Under the pieces are notes generated by a model that was given only the letters and a program-made list of their open reading frames with translations, did no database searches and had not been told where the DNA came from. A stretch of DNA of 29,843 bases, from IMG/VR virus record IMGVR_UViG_3300021407_000008. The stretch is one strand, 5' to 3'. Shown one piece after another: positions 1,453-29,843 of the stretch. Each line of letters begins with the position of its first letter. Position 1 is the first letter of the stretch. The translations under genes were made by a program, and so were the position numbers. Source of the DNA: a virus (Duplodnaviria; Heunggongvirae; Uroviricota; Caudoviricetes).

Positions 1453-2046
1453 GTGCGGTATTTGGATAAATCCCAGTTGCGTGCGCTATTGGATGCAGCG
1501 AAAAGGGATAACCCCTTGCACCATCTGTTAATTCTCTTGGCTTACGCGCATGGACTTAGAAGTACAGAAGCCGTTAATGTTTGGATTGGCCCAACTACTG
1601 CTCGGATTAAGACAATCAAAAACGGCAAGCCGTCTACTGTGCCAGCACCGTATATTGAATCCAATACGCTGATTGTGCAAAGACTCAAGGGGAGCGAATG
1701 CACGCGGCAACCATTGGTATCTAGTTCTGATCCGTTGTTCGATGAAGTATCGTTGCTGTCTGGTTTACCGAATGGCAGATTGTTCCCCAACTGGACTAGG
1801 CACGACTTTAACAATTTGATGCGCTCCTACGGGAAGCGCGGCATTATCCCGCAATTTCTGGCGCATCAACACATTTTAAAACGTTCTATTGGCAAGCACA
1901 TGGTACGCGGGGCGGGATTAGATAACACGAGCATTTACCTTGGCCATAAAAATTGGTCAAGTACGAAGGCTTACGTGAAGAATTCCGATTCTGAGGCAGC
2001 AGCAGCAATGAATGAAGCAGTATTTGGCCGCATGGAGGCGGCGTAA
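1453..2046 (+). CDS. Compact tyrosine recombinase, FimB/FimE-like, catalytic domain only
   Basis: Box I LLAYAHGLRSTEA; RLKGSECTRQPL (compare FimB RLKKGFSTTHPL); box II HQHILKRS...LGHKNWSSTKAY with His and nucleophile Tyr. Confidence 0.85.
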   Translation: MRYLDKSQLRALLDAAKRDNPLHHLLILLAYAHGLRSTEAVNVWIGPTTARIKTIKNGKPSTVPAPYIESNTLIVQRLKGSECTRQPLVSSSDPLFDEVSLLSGLPNGRLFPNWTRHDFNNLMRSYGKRGIIPQFLAHQHILKRSIGKHMVRGAGLDNTSIYLGHKNWSSTKAYVKNSDSEAAAAMNEAVFGRMEAA

Positions 2047-2552: not shown

Positions 2553-2991
2553 CCACGGGCCTTGCCGAGATGAATTCTCGGTAAGGCTTTATTTTTGCCT
2601 GAATCTTGGGGATTAAACCTGCTACACTGTAGCCATACACGCAAAGTAGCGCCCTATCCGCATTGTTCTGCGTGGTTTCTAGCGCCTTTCTAAGCATTTT
2701 ACAGCCAATTTGTACGTTTAACGTAGGTTCTAATAGTTCCATTTGTGTCTGGTTATATCCGAGGTCTTTAGCCGCCTGAGAGTTGATCTGCAATAGCCCT
2801 AGCCGCGCATTGGGAGCCTTCAGGGACGACAAATTAGGGTTGTATTGCATCGGGTCCATGGATTGCTCTACGAGGGCCGGATTCCAGCCTGAGAGGATTT
2901 CAATGATTGCGCAGCATAATTCTGGCGGTATTCCTTCTCGAATAGCGATATCTATAGCGATTGCAACGAGTTCCGGCTTGCTATGAATCAT
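2533..2991 (-). CDS. SLT lytic transglycosylase-fold protein, probably catalytically degenerate
   Basis: IPPELCCAIIEILSGWNP, GLLQI, LLEPTLNVQIGCKML match SLT motifs; the canonical ES reads LS. Confidence 0.8.
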   Translation of the reverse strand: MIHSKPELVAIAIDIAIREGIPPELCCAIIEILSGWNPALVEQSMDPMQYNPNLSSLKAPNARLGLLQINSQAAKDLGYNQTQMELLEPTLNVQIGCKMLRKALETTQNNADRALLCVYGYSVAGLIPKIQAKIKPYREFISARPVVTLQSQ

Positions 2992-3161
2992 GTACGATAC
3001 GGGTCTATGGCATCGCCTAGAAGGTCTAAGGCTAATTGGGAGAAACTAATCTTTTGTTCATCGCTAAGATATACGGCTATCTCGTCTTCTGAAATCCTCA
3101 TAGCCATTATCATATCTGGGATGATTTCAAACGCTATAGATTCGGGTTCTTCGTCCATCAT
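2988..3161 (-). CDS. Small acidic hypothetical protein (57 aa)
   Basis: ATGA overlap with the upstream stop at 3158-3161 and with the downstream start at 2988-2991. Confidence 0.65.
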   Translation of the reverse strand: MMDEEPESIAFEIIPDMIMAMRISEDEIAVYLSDEQKISFSQLALDLLGDAIDPYRT

Positions 3162-4687: not shown

Positions 4688-6487
4688 TTAGTCTACCGCC
4701 GTATGCCCGTGGGCTTGAATATCTTGTTTGATTTGATCGTCCGTTTTGCCTTGGTTTTGCGGTAACTGTCTAGCCGCTTTCATGCTAACGGTTTTACCGC
4801 TTGGGGGTGCTACGGCTTCTTGCGGCATCTTTGGGGCGCGGAGATTGTGGGTCAAACCTCTTTGTGCATCGTGTATTTCTTGGATACTACTAGCTCCTAA
4901 GATTTTATCCGAAGCGTCTGCGTAGGCATCGTTCTTTGCGGCAAGCAGTTTATATGCGTTATTCAAAATATCTTTTAGCTGCGTGCGCTGCAATGGAGTT
5001 AATTGTTGAACGGTTTTATCGTCCGCGCGGCTAAACCAAGTTTCTACATCCCCCATCCATCCTCGCGCCTGAGAACCAATAGAATTAAGTTCCGCACCCG
5101 TAATACGCACGCCGCCGCCGCCTACAGTTCCACGCAATGCAGCAATCTTGGCAACGGCATCGTATTCCCCGCCGCCCTTATTCAACAAGTTGATAGCCTC
5201 GGCAAAATCTTGGAACTTGCCTTGGTCTTGTTCAATCGTATGGTTTATGGGTACTAAAGCTTTTTGGCGAACAGTCTCCGTAAACCTATCTGCTTTATCG
5301 CTGGCTCCAGCAGCGGCTTTTTCCTTCGGAGTAGGATATTGCGACCTAATTTCTGGCGCACGCAGAGATAGTGCCTGAGCGAGTTCGCGCACTTTTGGAT
5401 TCTTTGGATTAGATGCCAACGTATCAGACGCGAAAAGCGCGGCATTGTTGGCGCTTTCCCAATCCTTCATTTGGCCACCTTTATAATAATCCTCTAGGCG
5501 TTTTACGGTGTCTTTGTCTGCTGCTGCTTGCTGCGGATTGAAGCCTGGAAACATGCCGCTATCTCGTATGAATTCTTCCGCATCATCCTTTCCGAGTTCT
5601 ACACCGTCCCTGCCTCTGGTGGTCTTGCTTCCCAATCCAGAAGCATCACCCTCCGTCGCATAAGCATAAACGTTTGCCATGTTTTTAATTGGCGGGTAAC
5701 CAGAATTCTCCACTGCTTTCTCTAAATCGGCAGAGCTTATCATGGATGAATTGGTTGACAGCGGCTTAGAGTTCTGCGATTGAATGTTTTGCGATACACC
5801 ATTTCTTACCGCGTGTGTACCGGCAACCGATGCATCCGAAGCCTCCGTACCAGCAGAAATATTCACCGGCATTGACGGCAACTTGCCTGTACCTGCCACG
5901 CCAGAAAGATTAATATCTTTCGGAATTCCGCCTTTGCGGACAATGGCAATCTGGTACAGCGGAGAATCCGCCGTAGTCCCACCTTTCGGAACAATTCTTA
6001 CATCTTGGTCGGGATGCGCGGCTTTTTGTTTAGATAATTCTTGGCGTAACGCTGCGGGGTCTTTGTTGGTTCCACCTACCCAATCAATCATTCCTTGCCG
6101 ATCTAATTGGTCATGGAAATCGCGAGCGGTATTGTAAACGCTGTTCCGTGTTTCTTGGTCTGCCTTAGCCAATAGATGCTTAGTCTGCAATTCGTATAAC
6201 TGCCCCATGGCTATACGCTGCTTGCGTAACGTAGCTTCGTCTGCTTGTTCGGATTGCTGCGCTTGGCGCTGCTGAGCGATTTGGGGCGCGTTAATTCCCG
6301 CTGCCATGGAGCGTGTATATGGATTGCTTTGATTCTGTGCTAGGGCTTGAACGCCGCCTTGGACTGCGCCTTTTACCAGGGTTCCAACTAGCGACGAAAA
6401 GAACCCTGTCCCGCCAGAAATTCCGGCAGGCTGGCCGCTTAGTGCGCCTTGTTGGCTAGGGTCGGTTTGTGTCTGCGGATCGGGCAT
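4688..6487 (-). CDS. Internal virion / DNA ejection protein (P22 gp20-like position)
   Basis: 599 aa, G/Q-rich N-terminus, helical composition; function inferred from synteny. Confidence 0.6.
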   Translation of the reverse strand: MPDPQTQTDPSQQGALSGQPAGISGGTGFFSSLVGTLVKGAVQGGVQALAQNQSNPYTRSMAAGINAPQIAQQRQAQQSEQADEATLRKQRIAMGQLYELQTKHLLAKADQETRNSVYNTARDFHDQLDRQGMIDWVGGTNKDPAALRQELSKQKAAHPDQDVRIVPKGGTTADSPLYQIAIVRKGGIPKDINLSGVAGTGKLPSMPVNISAGTEASDASVAGTHAVRNGVSQNIQSQNSKPLSTNSSMISSADLEKAVENSGYPPIKNMANVYAYATEGDASGLGSKTTRGRDGVELGKDDAEEFIRDSGMFPGFNPQQAAADKDTVKRLEDYYKGGQMKDWESANNAALFASDTLASNPKNPKVRELAQALSLRAPEIRSQYPTPKEKAAAGASDKADRFTETVRQKALVPINHTIEQDQGKFQDFAEAINLLNKGGGEYDAVAKIAALRGTVGGGGVRITGAELNSIGSQARGWMGDVETWFSRADDKTVQQLTPLQRTQLKDILNNAYKLLAAKNDAYADASDKILGASSIQEIHDAQRGLTHNLRAPKMPQEAVAPPSGKTVSMKAARQLPQNQGKTDDQIKQDIQAHGHTAVD

Positions 6488-12079: not shown

Positions 12080-12104
12080 AAGGTTTTCCTTTTTGTACTA
12101 GGTG

Positions 12105-12132
12105 ATTTTAGCAGACGTGATATATAATCACG
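12105..12132. promoter_or_regulatory. Back-to-back divergent promoters with a central inverted repeat
   Basis: Minus-strand TGcTAAAAT (12113-12105); plus-strand TATAAT (12123-12128); CGTGAT-N5-ATCACG (12116-12132). Confidence 0.55.
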
Positions 12133-12134
12133 AA

Positions 12135-14336
12135 ATGGAAACCTACACCACATTCCTAGAATCCAAAACATCGTTTGCCAAAGAATGCGGACTAGATATT
12201 TCCCGCGACTCGCTCAATCCTAAGCTGTTTGACTTCCAGCGCGATATCGTTGCTTGGGCGCTTCGCAAGGGACGTGCTGCCATATTCGCGGATTGCGGAC
12301 TTGGGAAAACTCCCATGCAACTTGAATGGGCAAGGAACGTACCTGGAGATGTGTTGATATTGGCCCCGCTCGCAGTTGGCCAACAAACGGAACGCGAAGG
12401 CAATAAGTTTGGAGTTGATGCCAAGTATTTACGCAAACCTGATGGCGGCGTGATTGTCACCGTAACCAACTACGAAATGCTCGAACATTTTCCTCTTGGC
12501 AATTATTCTGGCATTGTTTTGGACGAATCGAGCATCCTGAAGTCTTACGATGGTGCATTTCGCACAGAGCTTACCGAACGTGCGCGAATTGTTCCGTATC
12601 GGCTAGCTTGTACTGCTACTCCCGCCCCTAACGATTACATGGAACTTGGTAACCATGCCGAGTTCTTAGGCGTAATGACTCGCACGGAGATGTTATCTAC
12701 TTTCTTTGTCCACGATGGCGGAGATACATCAAAGTGGAGACTAAAGAAACACGCCACGAAAGATTTCTGGAAATGGATTTGTTCTTGGGCGGTAATGCTT
12801 AGAAAGCCATCGGACCTTGGTTATGATGACCGCGACTTCATTCTCCCACCACTTGAAATTCAAGACATAATGATCGACGTAGCCAAGCCTACCGATGGAT
12901 TTTTGTTTGCGTTACCGGCTATCACGCTAGAAGAACGCCGCAAGGCGCGAAGCATTACAGTCGAAGAACGTGCAGCCAAAGTGGCGGAGATTGTGGCGAC
13001 TAAGCCGAATGAGCCATGGCTGATATGGTGTAACCTTAACACCGAAAGCGAAATCGCGGCAAAATATCTTGGAGCAGTAGAAGTGCGTGGCTCCGATTCT
13101 CGGGAAGAAAAAGAATCTAGAATGTTAGGTTTCTCCGCTGGCGATATTCGCGTGCTTGTGACCAAGCCTTCCATTGCGGGGTTTGGCATGAACTGGCAGC
13201 ATTGCCCAAACATTGTTTTCTTGGGTTTGTCGGATTCCTATGAGCAGTTCTATCAAGCGATTAGGCGTTGCTGGAGATTTGGTCAGACCAAGCCGGTGAA
13301 TTGCTACGTCGTAACTAGTTCACAAGAGGGAGCGGTAACGGAAAACATCAAGCGTAAAGAAAGAGACGCTCAAAAAATGGCAGAGGAGATGGTTAATAAT
13401 ATGCACGAATTAAACCAGAAAGAGATTCGCGGCAAGGGCGGCAAGGTAGGAAACAACGTTATTCACAGAATGGATGCTGGCGCGGGGTGGATAATGCACC
13501 TAGGCGACTGTGTGGACGTTCTAGAGAAGCGACCAGATGATTCTGTGGATTACTCAATTTTCTCCCCACCATTCGCTTCGTTGTATACCTATTCGGCGCT
13601 ACCAAACGATATGGGTAACTGCCGTACTCATTCTGAGTTTTACGAGCATTTCAAATTTCTAGTTCCACATTTATTGCGGGTTCTTAAGCCCGGAAGAAAC
13701 CTTAGTTTTCATTGTATGAATCTTCCTATGACCAAGGAACGCGACGGCGAAATCGGACTATGGGATTTTCGCGGAGAACTAATTCGCATATTTACCGATG
13801 CCGGATTTCTGTATCACTCCGAAGTTACGATTTGGAAAGACCCAGTTACGGCGATGCAGCGGACGAAGGCTATTGGGCTGCTTCATAAACAACTGAAAAA
13901 GGATTCCTGTATCAGTCGGCAAGGAATAGCGGATTATCTTGTAACCATGCGAAAGCCGGGGATAAATCCAGAACGTGTAACGCATACCGCTGAATCTTTC
14001 CCTGTTTCTCGCTGGCAAGAGTGGGCATCTCCGGTTTGGATGGATATTAACCCTAGCGATACATTGCAACGCGAGTCCGCTCGCGAACACGAAGATGAAC
14101 GGCATATTTGCCCGCTGCAATTAGAAGTCATTAGGCGCGGTATGATTCTTTGGTCGAATCCGGGAGACTTAGTGCTTAGCCCGTTCGCTGGAATTGGTTC
14201 TGAGGGATACGTGTCGATTCAGGAAGATCGTAAGTTTTTAGGGATTGAACTTAAAGAATCCTATTGGAAGCAGGCTTGTGCTAACCTTAAAATCGCGCAT
14301 AGGAAAACCGATACGTTGTTTGCGGTCGGATCATAG
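12135..14336 (+). CDS. SNF2-like helicase fused to a beta-class N4/N6 DNA methyltransferase
   Basis: Walker A FADCGLGKT, LDESS, TATP, QAIRRCWRFGQ; MTase motif IV FSPPF precedes motif I SPFAGIGS; ATG 12135 preferred over the GTG at 12102. Confidence 0.9.
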   Translation: METYTTFLESKTSFAKECGLDISRDSLNPKLFDFQRDIVAWALRKGRAAIFADCGLGKTPMQLEWARNVPGDVLILAPLAVGQQTEREGNKFGVDAKYLRKPDGGVIVTVTNYEMLEHFPLGNYSGIVLDESSILKSYDGAFRTELTERARIVPYRLACTATPAPNDYMELGNHAEFLGVMTRTEMLSTFFVHDGGDTSKWRLKKHATKDFWKWICSWAVMLRKPSDLGYDDRDFILPPLEIQDIMIDVAKPTDGFLFALPAITLEERRKARSITVEERAAKVAEIVATKPNEPWLIWCNLNTESEIAAKYLGAVEVRGSDSREEKESRMLGFSAGDIRVLVTKPSIAGFGMNWQHCPNIVFLGLSDSYEQFYQAIRRCWRFGQTKPVNCYVVTSSQEGAVTENIKRKERDAQKMAEEMVNNMHELNQKEIRGKGGKVGNNVIHRMDAGAGWIMHLGDCVDVLEKRPDDSVDYSIFSPPFASLYTYSALPNDMGNCRTHSEFYEHFKFLVPHLLRVLKPGRNLSFHCMNLPMTKERDGEIGLWDFRGELIRIFTDAGFLYHSEVTIWKDPVTAMQRTKAIGLLHKQLKKDSCISRQGIADYLVTMRKPGINPERVTHTAESFPVSRWQEWASPVWMDINPSDTLQRESAREHEDERHICPLQLEVIRRGMILWSNPGDLVLSPFAGIGSEGYVSIQEDRKFLGIELKESYWKQACANLKIAHRKTDTLFAVGS

Positions 14337-14339
14337 TGT

Positions 14340-15044
14340 TTACCTCGTTTCTCCTTTCGCGTTAATCCATTTCGTGCGCTTTAGATAAGATACTGCGCTC
14401 TCCATTAGCTCCGTATTGTGATAGAACTGCCCCATGCCCGCGTTGCACGTCCGACACAGAATACCACGAACGCACTTCCCGCATGATTTATCACCAGCGC
14501 AGCAATCATGGTCGTGATCTACATGCCAGAACGCTACTTCGTTTTCTTTGGGCCTTTTGTGGCACAGCGCAATTCCGCACTTGCCGCCTTGTTTTTCAAT
14601 GATCGCATAGAATTGATCTGCGGTTATATTGAATTTGTTTTTTAGATTTCGCGCCCAAAGTTTTTCTCTGTTATCTCTGGCATATCTGTTTACGCGGGTT
14701 CTGGTAGCAGCTATATTCTCTGGTGTGCGCGTTTTGTACTTGTAGTCGTCGTAGCATTCTTGACACATCCCCTTCGCGTAATGAATCCTGTCAGTATGGC
14801 AATCCGCCATGCGCTTACCAGTTCTCTTGCGGCGCTCTGGACGAACAATACTGTAGCACTCATAACACAAGCCAGCAGAGTAATGCTGTCTATCTGTATG
14901 GCAGGTTGCACGAACGTCTTTTACTATCGTTCCCGCCGGGCGTGATTTCTCATATCTGTAACGGTGAAAGCAGGCTTGACAAAGACCGTGGGCGCAGTGT
15001 GGTTCAAGTGGATGGCATGTAGCTTGTGGTCGTACTCTTGGCAT
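14340..15044 (-). CDS. Endonuclease VII-family HNH nuclease with three N-terminal Cys/His repeats
   Basis: QGGKCGIALC...HVDHDHDCC...CVRGILCRTCNAGMG; AAGGAG SD before ATG 15044. Confidence 0.9.
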   Translation of the reverse strand: MPRVRPQATCHPLEPHCAHGLCQACFHRYRYEKSRPAGTIVKDVRATCHTDRQHYSAGLCYECYSIVRPERRKRTGKRMADCHTDRIHYAKGMCQECYDDYKYKTRTPENIAATRTRVNRYARDNREKLWARNLKNKFNITADQFYAIIEKQGGKCGIALCHKRPKENEVAFWHVDHDHDCCAGDKSCGKCVRGILCRTCNAGMGQFYHNTELMESAVSYLKRTKWINAKGETR

Positions 15045-15064
15045 TTTGTTTCTCCTTAATGCCA

Positions 15065-15072
15065 ATTATACA
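15065..15072 (-). promoter_or_regulatory. TGTATAAT -10 element upstream of the EndoVII gene
   Basis: Exact TATAAT 20 nt upstream of the ATG; the same 8-mer precedes two other endonuclease genes. Confidence 0.5.
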
Positions 15073-28252: not shown

Positions 28253-28270
28253 TGAAATAGATTACCAAAC

Positions 28271-28372
28271 TTAGTAGAAATCGGAACAACTAAGGAAAAA
28301 GTGGCAGACTGGGCAAATCATTTTACAGCGCGATTGCTCAAGTGCGGAACCGCATTGCGGACAATTATTTAT
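28271..28372 (-). CDS. 33 aa six-Cys zinc-finger micro-protein with a non-canonical ATA start (or pseudogene)
   Basis: (I/M)[32 protein letters not shown]; GGGAG SD; ATAA overlaps the upstream TAA. Confidence 0.55.
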
Positions 28373-28776
28373 GCCGATTCTCCCGATTGCGCCAATGAAT
28401 CCAATACGCTATTCGCTTCTTGTAATTCTTTGGCAGCCTCAGCTTTAAATTTCTGAGCTTTCTGTTCGGCCAGTTCTGCCATGGTATTAAGGATTGTTTC
28501 CATGTGCCGATTAAGCGCCCCAACAAGAAATTCTTGCGCATGCACGCCGCCAACCGAGGTCATCGAGCTACACGAAGAACTGCCGTAATAACCGGTATAA
28601 CAAGACAGGCCAACCTTAACCGCGAATACCGAGAAATCGGAACCAAGACTAAATTTTAGATCATGCTTATCGCAGCGCGAATCCTTGATTGCTTCGCGAT
28701 AATTAGGAACAATGCCGCGCAGGCGCTTGGCGGTATCGAGCAAAGCCTTAATCTCTTCAAACTTTTCCATTTTCAT
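28369..28776 (-). CDS. Hypothetical protein
   Basis: 135 aa; GAGGAG SD; C-terminal coiled coil. Confidence 0.75.
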
Positions 28777-28830
28777 GTTTAATTTTCCACTCCTCTAGAT
28801 ATTGGATGGAACTCTCTAGCGTTTGGATGT

Positions 28831-29406
28831 TTAGCCTCGTAATATTTTTGTTTCTTCGGTAACTATGCCGGTTAAGTCTATGTAATTTCCCTTGGTGTCT
28901 AATTTAAATTTGCGGCGCGGTAGTGGTTTTGTTTCCTTGATAAATCCAACCCTATATTGCGGTCCTTTGTCGTTTAACTTTCTTGATTCTTGGTACATCT
29001 GCTCACGAAGTTCTGGGTTTCTGGTTCTTACCGGCAGCGCCAGATATTTAAGCGCAAGATCAACCAACTCCTGTTTGCCTTCAATGAACGGCTTAATGCC
29101 AAGAAGAAAGCCGCGCTGTTTTTCCTTGCCGGTAATAAACCACTTACCAGAGCGTTTCCAAGCTTCGCCCTTGGTTTCAAAAATCTTGCGGCTATCCCCA
29201 GAAGTGTTTCCCTCTGGAACGTTTTTGGCGAAGAATTCCAAAATTCTTGGATGTGTGTTTGTTACGTTGAGATTGAGGGCATATTGAGTGTAGGCCCGCT
29301 TGTCGCCATCGTGGAAAGCATCACAACGGGCAATACCAATATGCCCTTCGCCGTCCATGTAAGCGCCCAATCTTGCCCATGTAATTTCGCTAATATTTTC
29401 AAACAT
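28831..29406 (-). CDS. Free-standing single-motif LAGLIDADG homing endonuclease
   Basis: ARLGAYMDGEGHIGI helix; YALNLNVTNT...ILEFF; W.I.G; FL..IKPFI..K. Confidence 0.85.
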   Translation of the reverse strand: MFENISEITWARLGAYMDGEGHIGIARCDAFHDGDKRAYTQYALNLNVTNTHPRILEFFAKNVPEGNTSGDSRKIFETKGEAWKRSGKWFITGKEKQRGFLLGIKPFIEGKQELVDLALKYLALPVRTRNPELREQMYQESRKLNDKGPQYRVGFIKETKPLPRRKFKLDTKGNYIDLTGIVTEETKILRG

Positions 29407-29432
29407 GTCCCAATTCTACAGTATCTCTCCCA

Positions 29433-29440
29433 ATTATACA
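29433..29440 (-). promoter_or_regulatory. TGTATAAT -10 element upstream of LAGLIDADG
   Basis: Exact TATAAT just downstream of the terminator. Confidence 0.5.
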
Positions 29441-29445
29441 AGCGC

Positions 29446-29476
29446 AAAAGAAAACACCCCAGATTTCTCTGGGGTG
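29446..29476 (-). terminator. Rho-independent terminator after the intron-containing gene
   Basis: 9-bp perfect stem CACCCCAGA-GAAA-TCTGGGGTG followed by TTTTCTTTT. Confidence 0.85.
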
Positions 29477-29495
29477 GGTAAGTTGTTGAAAACAA

Positions 29496-29523
29496 TCAGG
29501 ATATACTCGCTTCCGCTTTAATA
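29496..29523 (-). CDS. Terminal exon of the probable major capsid gene
   Basis: After splicing reads (L)IKAEASIS-stop; lies immediately before the terminator. Confidence 0.65.
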
Positions 29524-29753
29524 CCTTTGTTATCAAAGACTTACAAGTCTTTGAGCTAGTTCGTTTCCGTCTAGCTCTGCGTATCGCTACGCAGTGCGGA
29601 CTGACTCTTTACCCGGCGAGGGGTAATGCCCATACAGTCTCTACGCCTTCCATGTTTCCATGGCTTGGTTCGGCATTGTCTCCAATTGGAGAGTTCCACC
29701 GACTTTGAGCATTTTTCATCTTCAGGTCGCCCTGAAGCGGGCCTATTTGATTA
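29524..29753 (-). ncRNA. Group I self-splicing intron, 230 nt, no endonuclease ORF
   Basis: P1 with U-G at the 5' splice site; P2 GCGA loop; P3 UGCUCA/UGGGCA; P4 UCGGU/GCCGA; P5; P6a GAAA loop; P7 GACUG/CAGUC; P8 UACCC/GGGUA; P9 GCGA loop; terminal G; P10 AAUA/UAUU. Confidence 0.9.
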
Positions 29754-29843
29754 AGCCTAAAACGGGGGTGCAAGGCTGCTGATTGAGGGACCCTCATGGC
29801 CGCATACTTAAAGTTATAGGCACATGAAGCCCCTACAACTCTA
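29754..29843 (-). CDS. Upstream exon (partial) of the probable major capsid protein
   Basis: Open frame RVVGASCAYNFKYAAMRVPQSAALHPRFR(L); heads the late module and ends at a strong terminator; resembles capsid C-termini I recall (G..C.YN.K), but only 30 codons are visible. Confidence 0.5.

Follow-up and report, generated by a model that had tools for sequence, protein, structure and literature searches.

Group I introns in phage capsid genes have been described before. The mycobacteriophage LittleE (Cluster J) carries one in its major capsid gene (Pope et al., 2013, PMC3706429), and the same paper cites Tuc2009 for a capsid-gene intron. Several introns may also share a gene: three group I introns are reported in orf142 of Staphylococcus phage Twort (Landthaler and Shub, 1999, as cited in PMC6669764), and the Jug jumbo phages possess many group I introns of ~206 nt that have been validated by metatranscriptome (PMC12880540). 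Where the intron and its endonuclease are encoded apart, movement may proceed by collaborative homing, as reviewed for the psbA intron of cyanophage S-PM2 and the free-standing endonuclease F-CphI (Zeng, Bonocora and Shub, 2009, in PMC3984707); a second phage system of this type is also reviewed there, and T4 mobE/I-TevIII is treated in PMC2790892. LAGLIDADG enzymes are listed as a family less usual in phages (PMC3984707).

Here we describe a locus at one end of a 29,843-nt stretch of DNA from a Caudoviricetes virus (IMG/VR record IMGVR_UViG_3300021407_000008), hereafter the window. We are highly confident that positions 29753-29524 of its minus strand are a compact, ORF-less group I intron near the 3' end of a capsid gene. 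A sequence-only reading of this DNA had described the capsid location as unusual, which overstates the case, as LittleE and Tuc2009 (PMC3706429) precede it and as sister introns occur in the same gene. The window intron is the last of several in its gene, not an isolated element.

The Interrupted Gene

The interrupted gene encodes the HK97-fold major capsid protein of a soil phage of ~100 kb. Its penultimate exon is cut by the window edge, leaving a 3' part at 29754..29843 on the minus strand which encodes ...RVVGASCAYNFKYAAMRVPQSAALHPRFR and the first two bases of a Leu codon; this part matches positions 3147-3236 of L001, and homologous exons are present in 29 relatives. L001 is a 3.6-kb JGI contig that overlaps the window end with 7 mismatches in 438 nt and extends the capsid gene, and the upstream exons of the window genome are read only via this 98.4%-identical sequence. 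With exon 2 of L001 as the query, 37 related loci were found in IMG/VR, and 305 relatives, typically of ~330 aa, in a library of 1.8 billion proteins. An 83%-identical, intron-less homologue matches PHROG 1357, labelled 'major head protein' (E 1.5e-22), and the AF2 model of the same homologue (pLDDT 87.5) retrieves the capsids of N4, Pan3, GP4, and HTV1 in Foldseek (E 1e-13 to 1e-11). This fold search was needed, as a PDB sequence search with the homologue returned no meaningful match; a Pfam search with it returned no match. The profile and fold matches of the homologue, together with the extension of the gene via L001, uphold the earlier designation of a probable major capsid gene.

In the gene maps of two contigs, one from ENA (103 kb) and one from Logan (36 kb), an SU10-type portal and head genes are situated upstream of the capsid gene, and the endonuclease discussed below, a 135-aa ORF and a His-phosphatase gene downstream. 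A blastn search of the INPHARED phages with the region gave no match. Elsewhere in the window are genes for a helicase fused to a DNA methyltransferase domain (12102-14336, plus strand) and for an endonuclease VII/HNH-like protein (14340-15065, minus strand), and a short integrase-like ORF (1453-2046, plus strand) recognized by PHROG hits alone.

On entry into the window at 29842, the minus-strand frame encodes ...YNFKYAAMRVPQSAALHPRFRL and then continues for 47 further codons to a TAA at 29611-29609. This in-frame TAA (29609..29611, minus strand) is situated in J8/7 of the intron and closes the read-through of the unspliced transcript, which is why gene callers report a 154-aa 'protein'. When used as a query, the read-through ORF retrieves two proteins, namely the window's own 154-aa gene call, and a 116-aa protein from the intron-less locus L002 that terminates in ...HPRFVELRTEASIS. 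The last exon is 28 nt in length (29496..29523, minus strand) and supplies the third base of the Leu codon, the residues IKAEASIS and a TGA stop at 29498-29496, such that the spliced frame reads ...PRFRL-IKAEASIS. An intrinsic terminator of the capsid transcript follows at 29445..29476 on the minus strand, and consists of a hairpin (29476-29455) with a 9-bp stem and GAAA loop, and then a T-run; similar hairpins are found 3' of the capsid stop in L017 and L031. Two further proposals made from the sequence are thereby sustained: an intron nine codons before the gene end, on which the spliced frame and the intron-less relatives agree, and a strong terminator right after the stop.

Fold and Proposed Splicing of the Intron

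The intron spans 29524..29753 on the minus strand (230 nt), as supported by Rfam RF00028, by a covariance model built here (R1), by covariation and by RNA contigs. Its helices, all formed by standard pairs on the minus strand, comprise P1 (29757-29752/29745-29740; GGCUUA/UAGGCC), P2 (29737-29731/29726-29720), P3 (29713-29706/29632-29625), P4 (29702-29697/29675-29670), P5 (29692-29688/29683-29679), P6 (29668-29667/29647-29646), P6a (29663-29659/29654-29650), P7 (29639-29635/29603-29599; GACUG/CAGUC), P8 (29624-29621/29614-29611), P9 (29594-29588/29583-29577), P9.1 (29575-29555) and P9.2 (29554-29533). The 5' splice site falls after U 29754, inside P1, where this U forms a wobble with the guide G; the intron-terminal G (omega-G) is at 29524 (minus strand), and the UAUU of the 3' exon can pair with the guide AAUA as a 4-bp P10. 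The features that define group I introns are thus present, including the U.G pair at the 5' splice site, the terminal G, the P3-P9 core and a P3/P7 pseudoknot with covariation. The predicted minimum free energy is -93.5 kcal/mol (z = -5.4 versus shuffles), and no ORF of at least 60 aa lies wholly inside the 230 nt.

A local search with RF00028 (Intron_gpI) aligned the full-length model (1-253) to 29763-29577 with a score of 50.0 bits (E 8.7e-12), which is borderline in being exactly at the gathering score of 50; the near-identical copy of the intron in L001 scores 50.3 bits. Rfam runs over the whole window, in gathering mode and at E <= 0.01, returned no match for the intron because speed filters drop the match, and so do not indicate its absence. 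The Infernal check foreseen by the sequence-only reading therefore succeeds locally and returns nothing in whole-window runs. That reading was also right in calling the element a group I intron without an ORF and in placing its two splice sites, all of which are confirmed here, and its P1 with U-G wobble, P7 of GACUG/CAGUC, terminal G at 29524 and P10 were all found where it had drawn them. A search of IMG/VR with the exact intron pattern gave no match.

Other classes of insert were considered. An intein was ruled out, given the in-frame stop and the RNA fold of the insert, as was a group II intron, for which the only match scored 10 bits (E 9.8). An assembly artifact was ruled out because the intron stands directly in the sequence of both the window and JGI contig L001. 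In addition, a Logan contig of DNA run X1, which may be the window's own source, spans the intron with 0 mismatches, and an identical intron read-through is present in the ENA 103-kb contig, as seen at the level of gene calls.

We propose that, in the late capsid transcript, the end of the 5' exon, ...AGGCU, would pair with the guide UAGGCC inside the intron, forming P1 with the U.G wobble at the splice site, and that an exogenous guanosine bound in P7 would attack the bond that follows U 29754. Positioned by P1 and P10 (UAUU/AAUA), the 3'-OH thereby released on the exon would in turn attack after the terminal G 29524. Together these two steps would excise 230 nt and join ...HPRFRL to IKAEASIS-stop in a full-length, 333-residue capsid protein, with an expected ligated RNA junction of ...AGGCU/UAUUAAAGCG. 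By analogy with the group I family, we infer that the intron is autocatalytic and guanosine-dependent. Ribosomes could compete with folding, as the exon-1 frame enters the ribozyme core for 47 codons. Capsid protein is among the most heavily expressed of late products, and several introns in a gene of this kind would imply very efficient splicing.

Sister Introns in the Same Gene

The covariance model R1 describes the core from P3 to P9.1 and was built from relatives. It scores the window intron at 164.5 bits and recognizes 16 strong members in 10 sources, one of them in the window and others in the distant capsid genes of L034, L035, and L038. In the 16-member alignment 90.8% of cells pair, as opposed to 35-38% with the partners slid, and both-side changes occur in 42 of 48 base pairs, values reached in 0 of 500 shuffles; the alignment was fitted to R1, and the covariation counts are inflated as a result. 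P7 was added by hand and, though outside the model, is 93.8% paired with an exchange of AU:9 / GC:5. A U at position -1 opposite the guide G, and a 3'-terminal G, are found in every member and in all nine delineated sister introns. Further, the guides co-vary with their own exons, such that the site B intron of L001 has AAUCGU/GCGAUU where that of L003 has GAUCGU/GCGAUC. Introns of ~190-230 nt occupy at least seven sites of the capsid gene in related phages, with guides that fit the local exon, and all R1 hits in three complete, ~100-kb relatives with terminal repeats fall inside the capsid gene.

Intron A of L001 (1681-2343), which bears a 187-aa LAGLIDADG-like ORF, is located just beyond the window end, and is accompanied in that contig by the ORF-less, 206-nt intron B (2908-3113), which is without P2 and scores 42.4 bits with Rfam. 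Site B is also occupied in L003, and in L017 by an intron with a 154-aa ORF; site D, in exon 2, is occupied in L017, L029, and L030, and site D' in L031 by an intron with a 166-aa ORF. L029, a sister phage, contains introns E (4815-5047) and F (5070-5270), separated by a 22-nt exon (5048-5069), and the removal of D, E, and F from this locus restores a full 333-aa capsid protein. The closest relative of the window intron, designated C, is intron E of L029 (73% identity over 193 nt by blastn; 70% by global alignment), which is inserted 66 nt upstream of site C. P2, P9.2 and a UAACAA tail are common to introns C and E, and are absent in B and D.

The site D introns of L017 (2344-2535) and L029 (4294-4485) are 192 nt long, in frame and free of stops, which is why ORF finders report a capsid protein with a 64-residue insertion. 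Between these two introns P7 differs by a compensatory change, GACUA/UAGUC versus GACUG/CAGUC. The capsids of L034, L035, and L038 are only 32-36% identical to that of the window phage, and their genes contain one to three family introns each (R1 scores of 53-138 bits), so the association of this intron family with the capsid family is old or recurrent.

The Splice Junction in Intron-Less Alleles and in RNA

Exon mapping across all loci identified 29 alleles without an insert at site C, the intron being carried by 2 of 31 alleles. All but one of these intron-less alleles (28 of 29) stop at the homologous codon, with a C-terminus of the form ...PRF-x-x-x-x-E(A/S)SI(S/A), and the exception, L027, is 26 nt shorter. 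The C-terminus is exactly HPRFRLIKAEASIS in L003, L017 and spliced L029, and once the proposed introns are taken out, L001 and L029 encode capsid proteins of 333 residues that are complete and share this C-terminal end. The C-terminus predicted by the sequence-only reading for intron-less capsid homologues was thus encountered in 28 of 29, identically in three. Protein and exact 21-mer searches of JGI metagenome contigs revealed no further site C introns or endonuclease carriers.

Contigs of public soil runs were aligned to the window from 28300 to 29843. Two RNA contigs, X8 (1376 nt) and X9 (503 nt), originate from soil metatranscriptomes of two different studies and join 29521 to 29752, skipping exactly 230 nt with a 2-nt ambiguity of placement (TA at both ends) that includes 29524-29753. 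The anticipated junction, which restores the capsid C-terminus and stop, is therefore seen in RNA contigs of two studies. DNA run X1, from which the window probably derives, aligns colinearly and retains the intron. An RNA-library contig of X2 (29506-29656; 151 nt) is unspliced across the 3' site, and could represent precursor RNA or DNA. In two runs the RNA contigs terminate at 29487/8, and coverage elsewhere in the stretch is patchy. Separately, RNA contigs of X2 and X9 match only a 42-nt core (29636-29677; 4 mismatches) and diverge on both sides, and probably derive from further introns of the family that are expressed in soil.

That the stretch is not removed at all, such that the phage has a capsid protein with a 47-residue read-through tail or a pseudogene, and that a strain without the intron is the source of the joined RNA contigs, strikes us as very improbable. 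Gene callers do annotate the 154-aa read-through product, RNA run X2 contains an unspliced contig, and the RNA origin of X8 and X9 is unprovable from contigs, as an intron-less strain, or DNA in an RNA library, with identical flanks might give the same joined sequence. Yet the flanks of X8 and X9 match the intron-bearing window with 0 mismatches, in a stretch where the aligned intron-less relatives L003, L017, and L031 differ at many synonymous positions. Moreover, the ribozyme fold is complete and covarying, and the 28-nt last exon is intact and in phase, with an encoded tail identical to that of three relatives.

The Neighboring Endonuclease Gene

A free-standing LAGLIDADG homing endonuclease gene (28831..29406, minus strand; 191 aa) begins 90 nt past the capsid stop, and encodes the motif LGAYMDGEG at residues 12-20. 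Asp18, Glu20, and Gly21 are invariant among five members of the endonuclease family, and the protein can be aligned with ORFs carried by introns of this capsid gene in L001, L017, and L031. In a Foldseek search of the PDB, the 47 best matches of its AF2 model (pLDDT 67) are all I-CreI, I-MsoI, I-CvuI or engineered derivatives thereof (E 3e-5 to 1e-3), in agreement with an alpha-beta-beta-alpha-beta-beta-alpha fold. A homodimer is predicted via the motif helix (interface residues 7-20) with an ipSAE of 0.72 against 0.01 for the best control, a mark that is reached by 20 of 30 proteins solved as same-chain pairs and by 1 of 23 single-chain proteins; the dimer runs agree in at least 69% of contacts, with a partner pLDDT of at least 80. 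This prediction may reflect memory of, or likeness to, solved I-CreI dimers. Pfam assigned no family to the 191-aa protein at E <= 0.01, a LAGLIDADG profile included, and its PHROG matches are weak and limited to PHROG 5046, labelled 'HNH endonuclease'.

Just before the endonuclease start codon, at 29408..29440 on the minus strand, are two tandem TGTA(T/G)AATTGGGA motifs resembling an extended -10 element, which are the best two of 5 matches (0.63 expected) and may serve as a phage promoter of that type. Most relatives have the His-phosphatase gene immediately after the capsid stop and no endonuclease there, on which basis the endonuclease and the 135-aa ORF (PHROG 25872, unknown function) are regarded as an inserted cassette (28253-29490, minus strand). 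IMG/VR searches with the 135-aa and 191-aa proteins gave no match. L003 is the only relative with a homologue of the endonuclease after its capsid gene (77% identity), and is without intron C; the homologue search returned this one relative, and an IMG/VR search with the L003 homologue returned only L003 itself. The TGTA(T/G)AATTGGGA motif is also found before the L003 endonuclease and after the L031 capsid gene.

Possible Routes of Intron Mobility

Site C is the center of a pseudo-palindrome, CGYTTTA-N7-TAAAGCG, which scores 7/11 in the window lineage and 8/11 in L029. Only 18 of 2136 centers in the capsid gene reach 7 (top 1%), a modest statistic of roughly p = 0.02 that was noticed after the fact. 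The layout expected under collaborative homing is present here, in that an ORF-less intron is accompanied by a free-standing endonuclease gene adjoining the interrupted gene. Under this model the adjacent LAGLIDADG homodimer would cleave capsid alleles that lack the intron, at the pseudo-palindrome into which the intron inserts; the intron and endonuclease gene would be copied together during repair, and the intron would shield the capsid allele of the carrier phage from cutting. With a putative target suggested by the pseudo-palindrome, collaborative homing is a plausible route of mobility. We go further only tentatively, in suggesting that the intron and LAGLIDADG gene are a homing pair caught before fusion, in a family that spreads within one gene by re-matching its guides. 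Against such a pairing, L003 has a 77%-identical endonuclease yet no intron at site C; and with two endonuclease-bearing lineages only, co-occurrence with the intron proves nothing.

These same observations favor a reading which we consider possible, if doubtful, in which the intron splices but is immobile, vertically inherited cargo, and the LAGLIDADG gene is an independent element that targets other nearby sequence, such as its own intergenic site. Free-standing endonucleases are, indeed, common between conserved phage genes (PMC3984707). Immobility is harder to reconcile with an insertion site centered on a pseudo-palindrome of the kind recognized by homodimeric LAGLIDADG enzymes, with an endonuclease homologous to ORFs in sister introns of the same gene, and with the confinement of the intron to one shallow lineage among 31 alleles, which argues for recent gain. 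The intron might alternatively have arrived with no endonuclease, from an E-type intron 66 nt upstream, either through retargeting at the RNA level (by reverse splicing into the capsid mRNA followed by reverse transcription and recombination) or through illegitimate recombination. The ~70% identity of intron C to intron E of L029 over most of its length and the shared P2, P9.2 and tail are consistent with this route, as are the guides matched to local exons at seven or more family sites and the restriction of all copies to the capsid gene in three complete genomes. We nevertheless consider it rather unlikely. To our knowledge, fixation of reverse-splicing transposition has never been shown in phages; introns C and E have diverged by 30%, which does not fix the route, and retargeting is in any case compatible with later endonuclease-driven homing.

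Significance and Comparison with Known Systems

Where the intron is unrecognized, the capsid gene is annotated as fragments, here as a 154-aa 'protein' with a nonsense tail, and in relatives as a capsid protein lengthened in frame by 64 residues. As a standard Rfam scan of a 30-kb contig misses the window intron, viromes probably contain more introns of this kind than are counted. Introns in capsid genes, and phage genes with multiple introns, are already known; the candidate pairing of an intron with a free-standing LAGLIDADG gene, and spread within one gene, are the part worth pursuing. An ORF-less intron beside a free-standing LAGLIDADG gene is a rare arrangement and, if the reading as a homing pair is true, the soil-phage capsid gene would be a natural laboratory for the assembly and retargeting of mobile introns.

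The window intron resembles RF00028 members in its full-length match, P3-P9 core, U.G pair at the 5' splice site and terminal G, and differs from them in being very compact, without P5abc or P7.1/7.2, and in having two extra 3' hairpins, P9.1 and P9.2. As in LittleE, a self-splicing intron in the capsid gene is absent from close relatives, and that of LittleE is spliced in late expression (PMC3706429). The LittleE intron also has a related, ORF-less copy in another structural gene, the BAKA tail gene (265 bp; PMC3706429). At 819 bp, however, the LittleE intron is larger and contains an endonuclease gene on the opposite strand, whereas the window intron is 230 nt long and has no ORF, the endonuclease gene being downstream. 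Unlike that of LittleE, moreover, the window intron is located 9 codons from the stop, and has sisters at no fewer than six other sites in its gene.

Twort and the Jug phages, compared here by description only, offer a likeness in having multiple small group I introns within a single essential gene, and in RNA reads that bridge the junctions. The window phage belongs to another lineage, that of a ~100-kb soil phage with an SU10-type portal, and in three complete genomes the members of its intron family occur in no gene other than that of the capsid. In pairs of the S-PM2/F-CphI type, the target of the enzyme is expected to be the insertion site of the intron, as we propose for the window pair. 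The enzymes of those pairs are of the Endo VII/HNH type with cleavage demonstrated, whereas the window enzyme is a predicted I-CreI-like LAGLIDADG homodimer, whose putative target is suggested by the pseudo-palindrome at site C.
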